From: a virus
Length of the DNA: 45,385 bases
Reading direction: 5' to 3' (one strand)
IMG/VR virus record: IMGVR_UViG_3300028886_000153
Coordinates: 1-45,385 of that record
Shown: piece by piece, positions 982-40,456 of the stretch
How the letters are laid out: every line of letters starts with the position of its first letter
How positions within the stretch are numbered: the first letter of the stretch is position 1
Translations under genes and position numbers: made by a program
The notes under the pieces: generated by a model
Seen by the model: the letters and a program-made list of their open reading frames with translations, nothing else
Database searches by the model: none
Told to the model about the DNA's origin: nothing

Positions 982-1010
982 TTGATTTTTATAAAAAAAT
1001 AATATATAAT
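982..1010 (+). promoter_or_regulatory. consensus sigma-A-like promoter cassette P1 (TTGATT-17-TATAAT) with conserved ATATATAGAAAATAA leader
   Basis: TTGATT 982-987, 17-nt spacer, TATAAT 1005-1010; same cassette recurs about 13 times in window. Confidence 0.65.
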
Positions 1011-1096
1011 ATATATAGAAAATAAAAAAGGGGCAAGAGAGATAAAATATATACATACCAATTTTGAAATATTAATAGTAAAAGGAGTGAATTGGT

Positions 1097-1810
1097 ATGT
1101 CAAAACTTATTGATTTAACAGGATAGAAATTTGGTCGTTTAACCGTTTTACATAAAGATAATTCTCGTAAAACTTCTACAGGTAGTTATTGGGTTTGTCA
1201 GTGCGACTGTGGAAATATTGTTAGCGTTAGAAGTTTATCTTTGCGAAATGGTGAAATATCCAGCTGTGGATGTTATAGAAAAGAAAAACTTAGTTAGTTA
1301 AAAACTGAAAATTTAGCTGGAAGGCGTTTTGGATTATTAACAGTAATCTCATTATCTGAAAAGAAAAATAATAGAGTTACTTGGCTATGTTAGTGTGATT
1401 GTGGCAATAAAATAGAAGTAACTGCACATGATTTAAAATCTTATCACACATAGTCTTGCGGGTGTTAGCACGAATCTCTAGGTGAAAGAGAAATTAAATT
1501 AATTTTAGATTAGAATAACATTCCATATATCCCTCAATATCGTTTTCCAGATTTTGTAAATCGCATATATGATTTCGCAATCGTAGAAAATAATACAATT
1601 ACTCGCTTGATTGAGTTTGATGGAGAGTAGCATTATAAAGAAAATTTGCTTTGGAAAGATTCGCTTTTAGAAATATAGAATAGAGATAAAGAAAAGAATA
1701 ATTATGCATTAACTCATTCAATACCTCTGGTGCGGATTCCATATTGGGAAAGAGGCAAAATTACATTAGATAAATTATTTAATGACAAATTTTTAATTAA
1801 AGGAGAATAA
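1097..1810 (+). CDS. multicopy family protein: tandem (LxGQxFGxL...YWxCxCDCGN...SCGC) zinc-ribbon-like repeats + C-terminal Vsr/PD-(D/E)xK-like domain (FDGEQHYK...RIPY); putative homing-endonuclease-like selfish gene; 8 in-frame TAG
   Basis: ATG 1097 after AAAGGAGTGA RBS; single frame open to TAA 1808-1810 only with TAG=sense; 3 internal repeats; paralogues at 4252-4980(-), 8619-9521, 37430-38356 and remnant 18714-18950. Confidence 0.7.
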
Positions 1811-1814
1811 TATT

Positions 1815-4229
1815 ATGTCAGATACCTTACAAAAAGATCTCGTCCTATCCACAAACGAATATGCCTACGTCCTAGATCAAACCAAAGGTTTCATTTCCTG
1901 TCTGGTTGGTCCGACAAAAATGTCCCTATCTCAGAGCGATAGTCTGGTTACTTTTAACACTAAAACCAAAAGATTTGAGCCCTGTTCTTATGCACAAGCT
2001 ATTAAAATTCTTACTATTTGTCCAGAAAACTGGTACTGTATTTTGAAGAATCCTGCAAAAGACAACAAACATCCTAATCCTGGAACTTCAAATACACTTC
2101 CAGAAGGAATGGCAGTGGGGAAGAAAATCAATATTACCGGTCCCGTGAGCTTTGCTCTCTACCCCGGTCAGATGGCAAAAGTGGTTCGTGGTCACGCTCT
2201 TCGTACCAACCAGTATCTCCTTGCGCGCGTCTATGAGGCTGCGGCCGCAAGCTCCTCTTCCGGAGAAGTGCGTGATGCCGAGGGTAATGTAATTGACACC
2301 AAGGCCACCTATGTCAATGGTCAGATTCTGGTCATCAAGGGTACCGAGGTTTCCTTCTACATCCCGCCTACCGGCATCGAAGTCATCCCCATCAACAATG
2401 ACGACTCTAATGGTTATATCCGTGAGGCTGTGACCCTTGAGCGTCTTGAATACTGCATCCTCAAGGACGAAGATGGTAACAAGCGTTATGTACACGGCCC
2501 GCAGGTTGTGTTCCCTGAGCCTACCGAGACTTTCGTGACCAGCCCCAAGGGCGGATACGTGTTCCGCGCTGTTGAGCTCTCCCCCATCAGTGGTATCTAT
2601 GTTAAGGTCATCGCTGAATATACGGAGGGTGATAAGACTCATCCCGTTGGCGAAGAGCTGTTTATCACTGGTAATGACCAGATGATTTATTACCCCCGTC
2701 CGGAGCATGCTATCATCACTTATGATGGTAAGATGATGCATCACGCTATCGCAATTCCCGAGGGCGAGGGTCGCTACATTATGAATCGCCTTACTGGCGA
2801 AATTAAGACCGTTAAAGGTCCGCAGATGTATCTTCCCGATCCTCGTTATGAGGTGGTTGTGAAGCGTAAACTGTCTCGCCACCAGTGCGAACTGATGTAT
2901 CCTGGTAATGCCGAAGCTCTCGCGTACAACGAGCAGCTTACCGAAAAGACTCTGGAAAAGTCTCTCAAGACTATCTCTATGGACGAGTTCACCGCATACA
3001 GCACTTCCAATAGTATTGGCGATACTCTCGCAAATCTTGAGGCCAAGGCAAACATCTCTCGCGGCACTTCCTATACCAAGCCTCGTACCATCACGCTGGA
3101 TACTAAGTATGAAGGCGTTGTAACTACTGATGTATGGACTGGTTATGCTGTCAATGTTATCAGTAAAGATGGTACTCGTGAGGTTATTTGCGGCCCGCAG
3201 ACCGTCATGCTGGATTACGACCAGACTCTGGAAGAGCTCCAGCTCAGCACTGGCAAGCCCAAGACTACCGACCATCTCATTCATACCTGTTTCCTTCGTT
3301 ATGAGAATAACAAGGTTAGCGACCTTATCAATGTTGAAACTAAGGACTTCGTGCGTTGCACTGTCAAGGTTTCCTACTGCGTTGATTTTGACAAGCAGTA
3401 CTCTGATAAGTGGTTCAGCATAGACAACTACATTAAGTTTATGACTGACCGTGAGCGTTCTCTGATGAAGCGTGCGGCCAAGAATTACACCATCGAAGAG
3501 TTCTACCAGAACTACGTCGATATCATTCGCAATGTCGCTGTCGCAAAGGACGAAGGTGGCGAGCATCCTGGTCGCTTCTTCCCGGAGAACGGTATGTATG
3601 TCTCTGACTGCGAAGTTCTCTCCATTGATGTTGAGCGCGACATTGCCGAGATGCTTATCAATCATCAGCGTGATATCGTTGAGCGTTCTCTTGAACTCTC
3701 TACTGCCGATAAGCGTGTTCAGGTTGCTGAGCAGCTCGCTATCGCAGAGAAGAAGGAGAACGAAGTTGAGAGCCAGAAGCTCATTGACAAGATGAATCTC
3801 CAGCGCGAGGAGGCTGTGCGCAAGCTGGCTATCCAAAGCGAGGTAAATCGTCTGAAGGAAGCTGAATCTGAAGCCGCTAAGAAAGCAGAGCAGGACCTCC
3901 AGGTTATGATTGACGCTATTGCCGAAGCCGAGCGTGCGCGCAAGGCTAAGGACCTCGAGCAGGAACTGGCTTACAAGAATGCGCTAGCTGACATTGAGAA
4001 GGCAAAGAAGAAGGCATATGCCGATACCGTCGAGCAGATCATGAAGTCTATCGCTCCTGGTCTTATCGAGAGTATGAGCTCTAATGCAAATGCGGATCTC
4101 GCTAAAGCGATTGCGGCAAGCGTCAGTCCTTACTCCATTGCCAATGATGAATCTGTAAGTGATACTGTAAATAAGCTGCTTCGCGGCCTTCCTATCGAAA
4201 CCCTACTGGATAAACTAAAAGCAGAATAA
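1815..4229 (+). CDS. major vault protein (MVP) homologue, 804 aa, no TAG codons
   Basis: N-terminus NEYAYVLDQTKGFISCLVGPTKMS matches the MVP repeat-domain start ([23 protein letters not shown]); repeated GEELFITG../GPQ.. MVP-repeat-like units; FPENGMYVSDCEVLSIDVERD..LINHQRDIVERSL matches the MVP shoulder region ([31 protein letters not shown]); C-terminal coiled coil like the MVP cap-helix; RBS formed by the end of the upstream gene (AAAGGAGAATAA). Confidence 0.8.
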   Translation: MSDTLQKDLVLSTNEYAYVLDQTKGFISCLVGPTKMSLSQSDSLVTFNTKTKRFEPCSYAQAIKILTICPENWYCILKNPAKDNKHPNPGTSNTLPEGMAVGKKINITGPVSFALYPGQMAKVVRGHALRTNQYLLARVYEAAAASSSSGEVRDAEGNVIDTKATYVNGQILVIKGTEVSFYIPPTGIEVIPINNDDSNGYIREAVTLERLEYCILKDEDGNKRYVHGPQVVFPEPTETFVTSPKGGYVFRAVELSPISGIYVKVIAEYTEGDKTHPVGEELFITGNDQMIYYPRPEHAIITYDGKMMHHAIAIPEGEGRYIMNRLTGEIKTVKGPQMYLPDPRYEVVVKRKLSRHQCELMYPGNAEALAYNEQLTEKTLEKSLKTISMDEFTAYSTSNSIGDTLANLEAKANISRGTSYTKPRTITLDTKYEGVVTTDVWTGYAVNVISKDGTREVICGPQTVMLDYDQTLEELQLSTGKPKTTDHLIHTCFLRYENNKVSDLINVETKDFVRCTVKVSYCVDFDKQYSDKWFSIDNYIKFMTDRERSLMKRAAKNYTIEEFYQNYVDIIRNVAVAKDEGGEHPGRFFPENGMYVSDCEVLSIDVERDIAEMLINHQRDIVERSLELSTADKRVQVAEQLAIAEKKENEVESQKLIDKMNLQREEAVRKLAIQSEVNRLKEAESEAAKKAEQDLQVMIDAIAEAERARKAKDLEQELAYKNALADIEKAKKKAYADTVEQIMKSIAPGLIESMSSNANADLAKAIAASVSPYSIANDESVSDTVNKLLRGLPIETLLDKLKAE
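2240..2249. repeat. TGCGGCCGCA palindrome copy 1 (in MVP gene)
   Basis: exact 10-mer. Confidence 0.9.
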
Positions 4230-4240
4230 AATAAAAAATA

Positions 4241-39316: not shown

Positions 39317-39399
39317 GGAAGTCTCTGTTGATATAACAACATATAAGAATTTATAAAAAGAGAAGAATTAACAGTATTAAAAAATAAGGAGACATAATT

Positions 39400-40398
39400 A
39401 TGGCAGAAATTTCCCTACTTGACCTTAAACCACATTAGGTTTCTCGTGACCTGCGCGGTTATTCTGTAATGTTTTATGGAACATATAAAACAGGAAAAAC
39501 AACTATCGCAAGTCATTTCCCAGGCGCCCTCTTATGCGCCTTTGAAAGAGGATATAATACTCTTCCCGGTGTTTATGCTCAGCAGATTCTTTCATGGGGC
39601 GATTTTAAAAAGGTTATTAACCAGTTAAAGCAACCTGCTGTTGCTGAGAAATTCCAGACTATCATCATTGATACTGGCGATATCGCATATGATATGTGTG
39701 TCAAATATATCTGTTCTAGAGAATCTACCGCAGATAAGGTCTATGAAACTATTGGCGATATTCCCTATGGCAAGGGTTATACTCTTGCCATGCAAGAATT
39801 TGATGAACAACTTCGTAAAATTCTCCAGTTAAATTATGGTCTTGTCATTATTTCTCATGATAAAGACAAGGTTTTTAAGGATGAAGCTGGCCAAGAATAT
39901 AATAAAATCATTCCCACTATGGATAGTCGTGCTGCTCTTGTTTGCGAACGCACTTGTGACATTATTGGTTATGTTCGTGTTGTAAACACTGAAGAAGGTC
40001 AGCAGACTCGTCTTTTCATGCGTGGAACTCCTCGCTATGAAGCAGGTTCTCGATTCCGCTATACTCCAGATTCAATTGAGTTTACATACGATGCTCTTGT
40101 AAATGCAATTGCCGATGCTGTTGAAAAAGAGGCTTCACAGGGCGCAAATCGTGTAACTGATGAAAGTCAGGCTGCAAAAGTTTACGCTGAAGAAGAATCT
40201 TACGATTTCAAGGGTATGATGGACGAGTTCCAGAGTCTCTGTGGCACTCTGCTCCAGAAGAGTCCTAATATGCCGGCTAAGATTACTGCTATTGTTGATA
40301 AGCATCTTGGCAAGGGGAAGAAAGTTGGAGATTGCACCGAAGCAAATGCTCCACAGCTCGATCTTATTTTGTATGATTTGAGAGAGCTTAATAAGTAA
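39400..40398 (+). CDS. Sak4-like RecA-fold ATPase (phage single-strand annealing/recombination protein), 1 TAG near N-terminus
   Basis: Walker A YGTYKTGKTT, Walker B IIIDTGD; AAGGAGA RBS before ATG 39400. Confidence 0.65.
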
Positions 40399-40403
40399 TA
40401 TAT

Positions 40404-40430
40404 CAGCCCCGCGGTTTTCTGCGGGGCTTG
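40404..40430 (+). terminator. rho-independent terminator CAGCCCCGC-ggttttct-GCGGGGCTTG
   Basis: GC stem; runs into the promoter -35. Confidence 0.55.
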
Positions 40431-40456
40431 ACTTTTATATAAATATATGGTATAAT
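40428..40456 (+). promoter_or_regulatory. promoter TTGACT-17-TATAAT
   Basis: exact consensus hexamers, 17-nt spacer. Confidence 0.6.

Follow-up and report, generated by a model that had tools for sequence, protein, structure and literature searches.

T4-type phages carry repeated intergenic composites, the PeSLs, that combine a strong early promoter with a stem-loop terminator and a Shine-Dalgarno (SD) sequence and for which modular shuffling has been proposed (Arbiol et al. 2010, PMC2839356; Comeau et al. 2014, PMC4122927). The early promoters of T4 have been described as 'über' UP/-35/TGn/-10 promoters whose consensus reaches beyond the sigma-70 elements, an extension interpreted as optimisation to out-compete host promoters (Hinton 2010, PMC2988021), and in the T5 promoter N25 the initial transcribed sequence is known to modulate output (PMC12464699). 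Here we describe a promoter cassette repeated along 45,385 nt of uncultivated phage DNA (IMG/VR virus record IMGVR_UViG_3300028886_000153, positions 1 to 45,385; this whole analysed stretch is called the window). We propose that the cassette is a complete, compact expression signal for RNA polymerase carrying the host housekeeping sigma factor, and that its copies are probably near-identical mainly because of selection toward one optimum. The closest described entity is the T4-type PeSL, which the cassette matches in composition and, weakly, in shuffling.

We scanned both strands of the window with a weight matrix that runs from the -35 element through 14 nt past the -10 element, and at a cut-off of at least 26 bits found 15 copies of the cassette, all on the plus strand (Table 1). 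The next-best match in the window scored 16 bits, and none reached 14 bits in 20 shuffles; the 29-mer TTGATTTTTTATAAAAAATATATTATAAT occurs twice exactly and once with 3 mismatches, against 0 expected. Nine near-identical copies make up class A, with the consensus TTGATT-TTTATAAAAAATATAT-TATAAT-ATATATAGAAAATAA..GAAAGGGG, and four make up class B, with the spacer AAAAATTTTT; copy 24001 is a partial class A match and 38307 fits either class poorly. The -35 element begins with TTG in 15/15 copies and TTGA in 14/15, the -10 element is TATAAT in 13 and TACAAT in 2, and the spacer measures 17 nt in every copy except 13930 (16 nt). All 15 are followed on the coding strand by an SD sequence and a start codon, and five (13930, 19028, 34510, 36958 and 40428) carry the G of a TG-extended -10. 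The sequence-only reading had counted about 13 copies and listed 12 positions. We found the motif at each of the 12, together with three copies that had been overlooked (32277, 34260 and 38307); the position given as 13922 does mark a promoter, but it is the end of a hairpin, and the -35 element begins at 13930. A generic promoter scan was uninformative in such A/T-rich DNA, yielding 92 matches where 55 were expected in one segment and 93 where 82 were expected in a second, so only the extended model tells real sites from background. A reading of the repeats as a replication origin or packaging repeats was dropped in view of their strict strand bias, fixed place 5' of start codons and canonical hexamers.

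For the wider family we assembled 141 related phage loci (2.8 Mb) by protein-anchored retrieval from viral contigs of 130-200 kb in rumen and gut metagenomes; the closest relative contributes a 44-kb syntenic stretch with 84-89% protein identity. Sites were picked by TTG-N20-TATAAT alone, avoiding circularity, which gave 672 unique sites on the gene strand versus 62 on the other. TTG stands exactly 17 nt upstream of 21.6% of gene-strand TATAAT sequences, compared with 1-2% for spacings of 16 or 18 nt and roughly 2% on the opposite strand, and the -35 element and its rigid 17-bp spacing are therefore real. Removal of orthologous duplicates left 476 non-redundant sites, in which the fourth position of the -35 element is A in 88% although only TTG had been required. 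Spacer positions 1-3 are T in 76-82% and positions 7-10 are A in 77-86%, positions -18 to -15 read T/A/T/G at 87/74/85/47%, and the -10 element is followed by A-T-A-T-A-T-A-(G/T)-A-A, each base at 64-85%. Beyond base composition, the positional information amounts to 5.6 bits in the spacer and 4.4 bits in the first 12 downstream bases, whereas within-sequence shuffles gave 0.4 bits and the opposite strand about 0.2 bits. Apart from a hairpin, the 476-site alignment has no conserved sequence 5' of the -35 element. Our findings bear out the sequence-only reading that these are promoters whose spacer and transcript start are conserved beyond the hexamers, since the 476 further aligned sites are conserved outside the hexamers too.

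Together, these findings point to canonical housekeeping-sigma promoters of the form TTGAyT / 17 bp / TATAAT; we infer from the sequence that they would use the host sigma factor, would be strong and would act early from a fixed start site. Most of the conserved segments fit functions of RNA polymerase, terminator or ribosome that are known or plausible, although which part of the polymerase reads each segment can be assigned only provisionally. T-A-T-G at -18 to -15 is what we take to be the Gram-positive '-16 region' or extended -10, and ATATAT would serve as a discriminator that melts easily. We predict transcription to start at the A seven bases past TATAAT (A in 70% of family sites), which would place the lone conserved G at +2, where core polymerase prefers G. 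In Bacillus subtilis-type sigma-A promoters, a TRTG '-16 region' was reportedly described by Helmann in 1995, and +1A/+1G start-nucleotide sensing is said to have been described by Krasny and Gourse in 2004. The cassette resembles these promoters in its T-A-T-G, its predicted A start and its strong extended SD complementarity (AGAAAGGAGG), and differs from them in lacking upstream phased A-tracts and in having the G of TG in just a third of the window copies.

The cassette also resembles T5 N25, whose sequence we confirmed in T5 genomes that carry a promoter annotation for it. N25 has TTGCTT in place of TTGAyT, a 17-bp A/T-tract spacer and TATAAT, and its spacer, TCAGGAAAATTTTTCTG, bears AAAATTTTT in almost the same register as the class B spacer of copy 19028 (TTCCTAAAAATTTTTGC), which suggests a structural role for the mid-spacer A-tract in strong promoters. 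On the other hand, N25 serves another host group and has another downstream consensus (AGATTCATAAAT); the resemblance is one of design, not homology. With the T4 early promoters the cassette shares the status of a phage promoter probably read by unmodified host holoenzyme and a consensus that exceeds the canonical elements. The T4 early consensus extends upstream, with a UP element, and has a GTTTAC-like -35, whereas in this phage family only the hairpin is conserved upstream of the -35 element; no Alt-like ADP-ribosyltransferase was identified.

At five window copies (5056, 6291, 10964, 13930 and 40428) a stable hairpin abuts the -35 element, and a sixth lies upstream of promoter 24001. The statement in the sequence-only reading that the cassette is usually preceded by a terminator thus holds for 6 of the 15 copies but not for most. 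The five abutting hairpins carry the tails TTGATTTTT or TGACTTTT and have the form of predicted intrinsic terminators, a GC-containing hairpin plus a T-tract; an independent scan reports these hairpins with the tails TTGATTTTTA, TGATTTTTTA, TTTGATTTTT and TGACTTTTAT. Across the family, a hairpin at least as stable as -8 kcal/mol was found in the 40 nt upstream of 195/476 sites (41%), compared with 19/476 (4%) after shuffling and 1/50 on the other strand, and its 3' end mostly abuts the -35 element. At sites with an abutting hairpin, T makes up 88-95% at positions 4-8, which comprise the TT of TTGATT and the first three bases of the spacer, and at sites without one it makes up 56-79% (Mann-Whitney p = 3e-16), a contrast that may be somewhat inflated by false sites in the group without a hairpin; differences at other positions are far smaller. 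The start of the cassette thus appears to be dual-coded, serving as the -35 element and spacer of one operon and as the U-tract (TTGATTTTT) of the predicted terminator of the preceding operon, and this double use would explain why TTGATT is preferred over TTGACA. The sequence-only reading did not include this sharing. It also sets the cassette apart from the PeSLs, whose hairpins fall into five positional subclasses: here the hairpin has one dominant place, abutting the -35 element, and shares its T-run. The cassette further differs in lacking an A/T-rich UP-like block upstream and in its extra conservation within the spacer and past the -10 element, which, with the shared T-run, is what is distinctive here.

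Predicted leaders measure 18-31 nt in 12 of the 15 copies, and the distance from the end of the -10 element to the start codon has a family median of 35 nt. The 12 short leaders fold with minimum free energies of 0 to -4 kcal/mol and z-scores of -1.06 to +1.34, no better than shuffles, and no Rfam family matched at gathering score anywhere in the window. What is conserved in the leader is an A-rich unstructured stretch that ends in the SD sequence aGAAAGGrG (GAAAGGGG), placed 7-10 nt before the start codon; this sequence is complementary to an extended part of the 16S rRNA 3' terminus, as is known for SD pairing in Gram-positive bacteria. Three leaders are long (982, 25449 and, with 59 nt, 34510). 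Judged by the closest relative, a homing-endonuclease gene has been inserted just past the ancestral SD sequence at 982 and 25449. In leader 982 a 12-bp stem at 1053-1100 pairs the endonuclease start codon (z = -2.1), and in leader 25449 a 13-bp stem at 25533-25565 pairs the endonuclease SD sequence (z = -2.4). These hairpins resemble the translational masking of homing-endonuclease genes in T4.

To separate selection from copying, we computed class A identities on non-hexamer positions. Copies in the window are 0.73 identical to one another and those in the closest relative 0.80; across the two genomes identity is 0.76 for non-orthologous and 0.82 for orthologous pairs, and random A/T-rich pairs reach 0.45. 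Since identity within a genome does not exceed identity between genomes, the main cause of the likeness would be a shared optimum under selection and not recent intragenomic spread. Genome-specific homogenisation of copies was likewise not seen (0.73 within the window versus 0.76 across genomes). Promoters stand at orthologous positions in relatives sharing 58-89% protein identity, and they also precede conserved core genes, namely those for gyrase, ligase and helicase.

The sequence-only reading had suggested spread of the cassette as a unit, and a PeSL-type mobile cassette could make the copies alike through spread or homogenisation, with recombination swapping promoter-plus-gene modules and gene conversion maintaining likeness; as the explanation of the repeats we consider this unlikely. 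Several events do fit it. Segment 4230-6290, which holds a minus-strand endonuclease gene, a predicted terminator, promoter 5056, a 388-amino-acid ORFan and a second predicted terminator, is absent from the closest relative; the two sequences become homologous again precisely at the -35 element of promoter 6291. Promoter 15313 behaves as a promoter-only unit, missing from the closest relative, in which the flanking genes overlap, and present at the corresponding junction in most other relatives. In another relative (L208), both breakpoints of a clean 1.9-kb insertion (5255-7120) fall within TTGAwwTTTTATAAAA repeats. The three genes unique to the window among the relatives fetched (5113-6279, 13988-14375 and 19094-19504) each lie directly behind a promoter, as do two endonuclease genes, and two promoter copies share a long identity that we take up below. 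Such composition and behaviour are exactly those of the PeSLs (PMC2839356, PMC4122927), which likewise are repeated intergenic cassettes with a strong sigma-70-like promoter, a stem-loop (here with predicted termination) and a 3' SD sequence, are dense where small variable genes abound and, as with at least two indels here, bound inserted segments. Against this stand the orthologous placement of the promoters in relatives down to 58% protein identity, the identity values and the behaviour of insertions: among 149 clean insertions between close relatives, most of them endonuclease-sized, 126 leave promoters untouched, 22 touch a promoter on one side only and 1 has promoter copies at both ends. 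Promoter-bounded indels were accordingly rejected as the main mode of gene turnover, and such indels are rare here compared with the PeSLs. Moreover, the association of promoters with indels is partly trivial, because whole-gene indels must end in intergenic DNA, much of which is promoter. The suggested spread as a mobile unit is therefore borne out, weakly, only as occasional events; promoter-mediated shuffling appears real but minor in these phages, whose lineage is unrelated to T4, uncultivated, TAG-recoded and probably infects Bacillota.

Other readers of the cassette have to be weighed as well. The spacers hold perfect A/T palindromes of 10-14 bp (TTTTTATAAAAA in class A, AAAAATTTTT in class B), which might form an operator for a phage DNA-binding protein or RNA-polymerase-modifying factor; all promoters would then be switched on or off jointly during infection, and such control may add to basic promoter function. 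The T-run/ATA/A-run unit retains its form even when shifted by 1-2 nt relative to the hexamers, the roughly 5.6 bits of spacer information have a known role for part only (TATG and the T-run), and the two spacer classes could mean two regulons. Small putative helix-turn-helix (HTH) proteins are also encoded directly behind such promoters: 37024-37368 matches winged-helix/MarR profiles, and the 88-amino-acid protein at 34604-34870 is 95% conserved and weakly HTH-like. The palindromes, however, consist of T-runs followed by A-runs and hold little base-specific information, and they arise automatically from a T-rich 5' half, which the terminator explains, and an A-rich 3' half. N25, with its AAAATTTTT spacer in almost the same register, works with plain E. 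coli polymerase, and the genes downstream of class A and class B show no evident functional difference. We therefore regard an operator as possible but improbable. Reading by a phage-encoded sigma factor or phage RNA polymerase in place of the host housekeeping holoenzyme is very improbable. The extended consensus is specific to this phage family in the data examined, and the 21-mer matches in bacterial bins lie largely on contigs of the family; yet TTGAyT, TATAAT, the rigid 17-bp spacing and TRTG form the textbook housekeeping-sigma pattern, we recognised no gene for a sigma factor or an RNA polymerase in the window, and the first promoters on an infecting genome need the host enzyme unless a polymerase is injected.

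Least credible of all is that the transcribed part acts as a leader RNA that is structured or bound by protein, for example a riboregulator or a processing site; the conserved leader RNA element suggested in the sequence-only reading found no support. The first 10-15 transcribed bases (AGAAAATAAAG) do recur among copies, but the leaders are mostly short and fold no better than shuffles, no Rfam family matches, the conserved bases are A-rich and end in the SD sequence, and the only structured leaders (982 and 25449) received their hairpins from inserted endonuclease genes. A joint reading in three parts seems quite unlikely: that the terminator/promoter overlap is one unit, at which polymerase releases the transcript in TTGATTTTT and restarts on the next promoter; that the TnATAn / AnTn spacer is the operator of a winged-helix protein (37024-37368 or 34604-34870) for joint shut-off; and that the repeats are also PeSL-like recombination linkers in a lineage unrelated to T4.

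A complete host-polymerase expression signal, kept alike by selection, remains the probable reading, and several observations weigh against it. Copies 5056 and 10964 are identical over 35 nt, while 10964 is only 0.69 identical to its own orthologue, a sign that some copying or gene conversion may have taken place. No polymerase contact is established for the mid-spacer A-tract or the T5-AT-A5 palindrome, which another factor could therefore read, and the false sites mentioned above may flatter the T-run contrast. Protein searches returned only uncultured records, at 37-44% identity, with no cultured relative, and the contigs of the family are binned in metagenome-assembled genomes of inconsistent taxonomy, for the most part Bacillota but with Methanobrevibacter and Treponema among them. 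Finally, the operon from 19028 includes an endolysin-like gene, and 'early' may not suit every copy.

In the mechanism that we propose, a large, lytic-looking phage would use these cassettes to divide the region for its early functions, replication and host takeover into short operons. A GC-containing hairpin would end the previous operon in about 40% of cases, followed by TTGAyT and a T-run that would double as the U-tract of that upstream terminator. An A-tract midway in the fixed 17-bp spacer, T-A-T-G at -18 to -15 as the '-16 region' or extended -10, TATAAT and the all-A/T discriminator ATATAT would then lead to a predicted A start with G at +2, and an A-rich unstructured leader of about 20-30 nt would deliver the extended SD sequence aGAAAGGrG. 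Selection would favour maximal polymerase capture, easy melting, a fixed start, open ribosome access and upstream termination, the last predicted from the hairpins, and the repeats may occasionally serve as homology for recombination that moves gene cassettes.

Table 1. Promoter copies and associated hairpins in the window, with scores from the weight matrix (bits) and neighbouring genes.
Feature	Position	Strand	Elements and scores	Context
Class A promoter	982-1034	+	-35 982-987, -10 1005-1010; 49.5 bits; ancestral SD AAAAAAGGGG	Homing-endonuclease gene 1097-1810 separates it from major-vault-like gene 1815-4229; orthologue in closest relative directly drives the vault-like gene
Terminator-like hairpin	5031-5054	+	Tail TTTGATTTTT	T-tail is the -35 and spacer of promoter 5056
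Class A promoter	5056-5112	+	46.4 bits; 22-nt unstructured leader; SD GAAAGGGG	Start codon 5113, 388-amino-acid ORFan
Hairpin GGGAGAAGG-ATAAAA-CCTTCTCCC	6267-6290	+	RNAfold -19.4 kcal/mol	Abuts -35 of promoter 6291
Class A promoter	6291-6349	+	52.7 bits; 24-nt leader; SD GAGGAG	Start codon 6350
Terminator-like hairpin	10942-10964	+	Tail TGATTTTTTA	Overlaps first T of -35 of promoter 10964
Class A promoter	10964-11027	+	45.1 bits; 29-nt leader; SD GAAAGGG	Start codon 11028; exonuclease, then RNA ligase (Pfam)
Terminator-like hairpin	13901-13929	+	Tail TTGATTTTTA	Abuts promoter 13930
Class A promoter	13930-13987	+	40.0 bits; 16-nt spacer; TG-extended TACAAT; SD GAAAGGAG	Start codon 13988; small ORFs 13988-14375 read as an insertion, because the relative's orthologous promoter directly drives the phosphatase gene
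Class A promoter, hairpin-free	15313-15376	+	48.9 bits	Occupies entire 65-nt gap between two genes
Class B promoter	19028-19093	+	35.1 bits; spacer TTCCTAAAAATTTTTGC; TG-extended -10; SD GAAAGGA	Start codon 19094; orthologue in closest relative
Long hairpin with own T-run	23944-23986	+	RNAfold -21.3 kcal/mol	14 nt 5' of promoter 24001
Promoter	24001-24053	+	38.1 bits; 18-nt leader	Start codon 24054, uracil-DNA glycosylase-like gene; orthologue in relative
Class A promoter	25449-25501	+	48.3 bits; ancestral SD GAGAAAGG	Upstream gene RNase H-like; behind it, inserted GIY-YIG endonuclease gene 25566-26342, then gyrB
Class B promoter	32277-32330	+	26.7 bits; spacer AATTAAAAAATTTTTTA; 19-nt leader	Start codon 32331, NAD-dependent DNA ligase gene (ligase domains); orthologue in relative
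Class B promoter	34260-34321	+	37.6 bits	Begins right after ligase stop codon; orthologous site 0.88 identical
Class B promoter	34510-34603	+	37.8 bits; 59-nt leader	Drives 88-amino-acid putative HTH protein (34604-34870), 95% identical in relative; orthologous site 0.94 identical
Class A promoter	36958-37023	+	47.3 bits	Within 3' end of thymidylate-synthase-like gene; drives winged-helix/MarR-like protein 37024-37368 (Pfam, PHROG)
Promoter	38307-38370	+	28.7 bits; 11/12 hexamer matches; SD AAGGAG	Within 3' end of endonuclease gene; start codon 38371
GC-rich terminator-like hairpin	40405-40428	+	-23.0 kcal/mol; tail TGACTTTTAT	Overlaps first T of -35 of promoter 40428
Class A promoter	40428-40486	+	42.0 bits; TTGACT; TG-extended -10; SD GAAAGGGGG	TTG start 40487; DnaB-like helicase gene follows

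At 25450-25452 and 34511-34513, the TGA inside the -35 element TTGATT is the stop codon of the upstream gene. A minus-strand promoter at 24801-24773 has the perfect consensus TTGACA-17-TGTTATAAT and lies in the gap after the uracil-DNA-glycosylase-like gene, pointing into it in antisense direction; the relative has a plus-strand promoter at the equivalent place.

The window appears to be the early, replication and host-takeover part of a large lytic-type phage, with nearly all genes on the plus strand. We recognised genes for gyrase B and A, NAD-dependent ligase, a DnaB-like helicase and primase, together with thymidylate-synthase-like, uracil-DNA glycosylase, RNase H, RNA ligase, polynucleotide-kinase-like and phosphatase genes, major-vault-like and flotillin-like genes and many homing endonucleases. 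The genes downstream of cassettes belong to early or replication types (gyrase, ligase, helicase, RNA ligase, kinase, vault-like and flotillin-like). When 10 kb of the window was compared by megablast with 50,697 phage records, no match was found, and when viral contigs were scanned for an exact 18-mer, the matches were mainly unrelated A/T-rich contigs; exact matches to the 21-mer TATAATATATATAGAAAATAA among bacterial genomes were largely to contigs of this phage family. Reading TAG as sense raises plus-strand open reading frame (ORF) coverage from 30.7 to 40.1 kb, and since fragments fuse into full-length genes only in this way, the phage appears to use a TAG-reassigned code. The effect is visible, for example, at 1097-1810, 8619-9521, 19094-29329 and 34885-45218, and one TAG lies inside a conserved endonuclease motif, DGE-TAG-HY. 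Most genes at 1.8-18.6 kb contain no TAG codons, and each homing-endonuclease gene has 2-8. Scans for tRNA and tmRNA genes found nothing, and the window holds no suppressor tRNA.

Four paralogous, low-GC, free-standing endonuclease-like genes lie at 1097-1810 (+), 4249-4983 (-), 8619-9521 (+) and 37439-38356 (+). They encode repeated GRLTV...WxCxCxCGN zinc-finger-like modules and a C-terminal (E/D)xDGxQH domain, contain 5-8 TAG codons each, have no Pfam match and are all absent from the closest relative. GIY-YIG homing-endonuclease genes occupy 25566-26342, 28062-28775, 34885-35913 (C-terminal part) and 43762-44478. The second of these splits gyrB into 26329-27885 and 28964-29329, where the relative has an intact 642-amino-acid gene, and the last lies between the primase-like fragments 42793-43656 and 44611-44934.

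Other genes stand out by composition or by comparison with relatives. The product of 1815-4229 is major-vault-protein-like (MVP shoulder and vault repeat domains) and that of 17202-18665 is SPFH/flotillin-like; both genes have a GC content of 0.48-0.50 in a genome of 0.30-0.38, lack TAG codons and are conserved across about 90 related phage contigs. An apparent RNA-repair set (7718-8569, 11860-13050, 14529-15311, 15832-16335 and 16317-17111) comprises an RlaP-like nucleotidyltransferase, an RNA ligase, two metallophosphatases and an AAA_33 kinase. With its counterpart at this site in the closest relative the RNA ligase shares only 28% identity, suggesting that the gene has been replaced. Upstream of its DNA ligase gene, the closest relative (L118, about 12350-14500; window 31858-32331) carries an extra 2.1 kb, the 3' end of which matches window 34144-34298 (ligase C-terminus plus promoter), suggesting a duplicated or second ligase-like gene. 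The 88-amino-acid protein of 34604-34870 has an acidic tail, and the relative's other proteins are mostly 50-89% identical; its gene comes with a promoter of its own, a leader of unusual length and, at 34885-34915, a separate strong predicted terminator.

Altogether, the element is an ordinary though neatly compact phage cassette of promoter, terminator and ribosome-binding site in an unstudied phage family. It extends the PeSL concept of composite promoter-terminator repeats beyond T4-type phages, although such repeats explain only a small share of gene-content change here and do not overturn current understanding. The sharing of the -35 element and T-run with an upstream terminator is a compact design that could be borrowed for synthetic Gram-positive expression cassettes, and the cassette illustrates that 'extra' conservation in phage promoters can be resolved into known functions. 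For the uncultivated, TAG-recoded gut and rumen phages of 130-200 kb to which the window belongs, it provides a usable promoter model of about 50 nt and a map of their early and replication operons.

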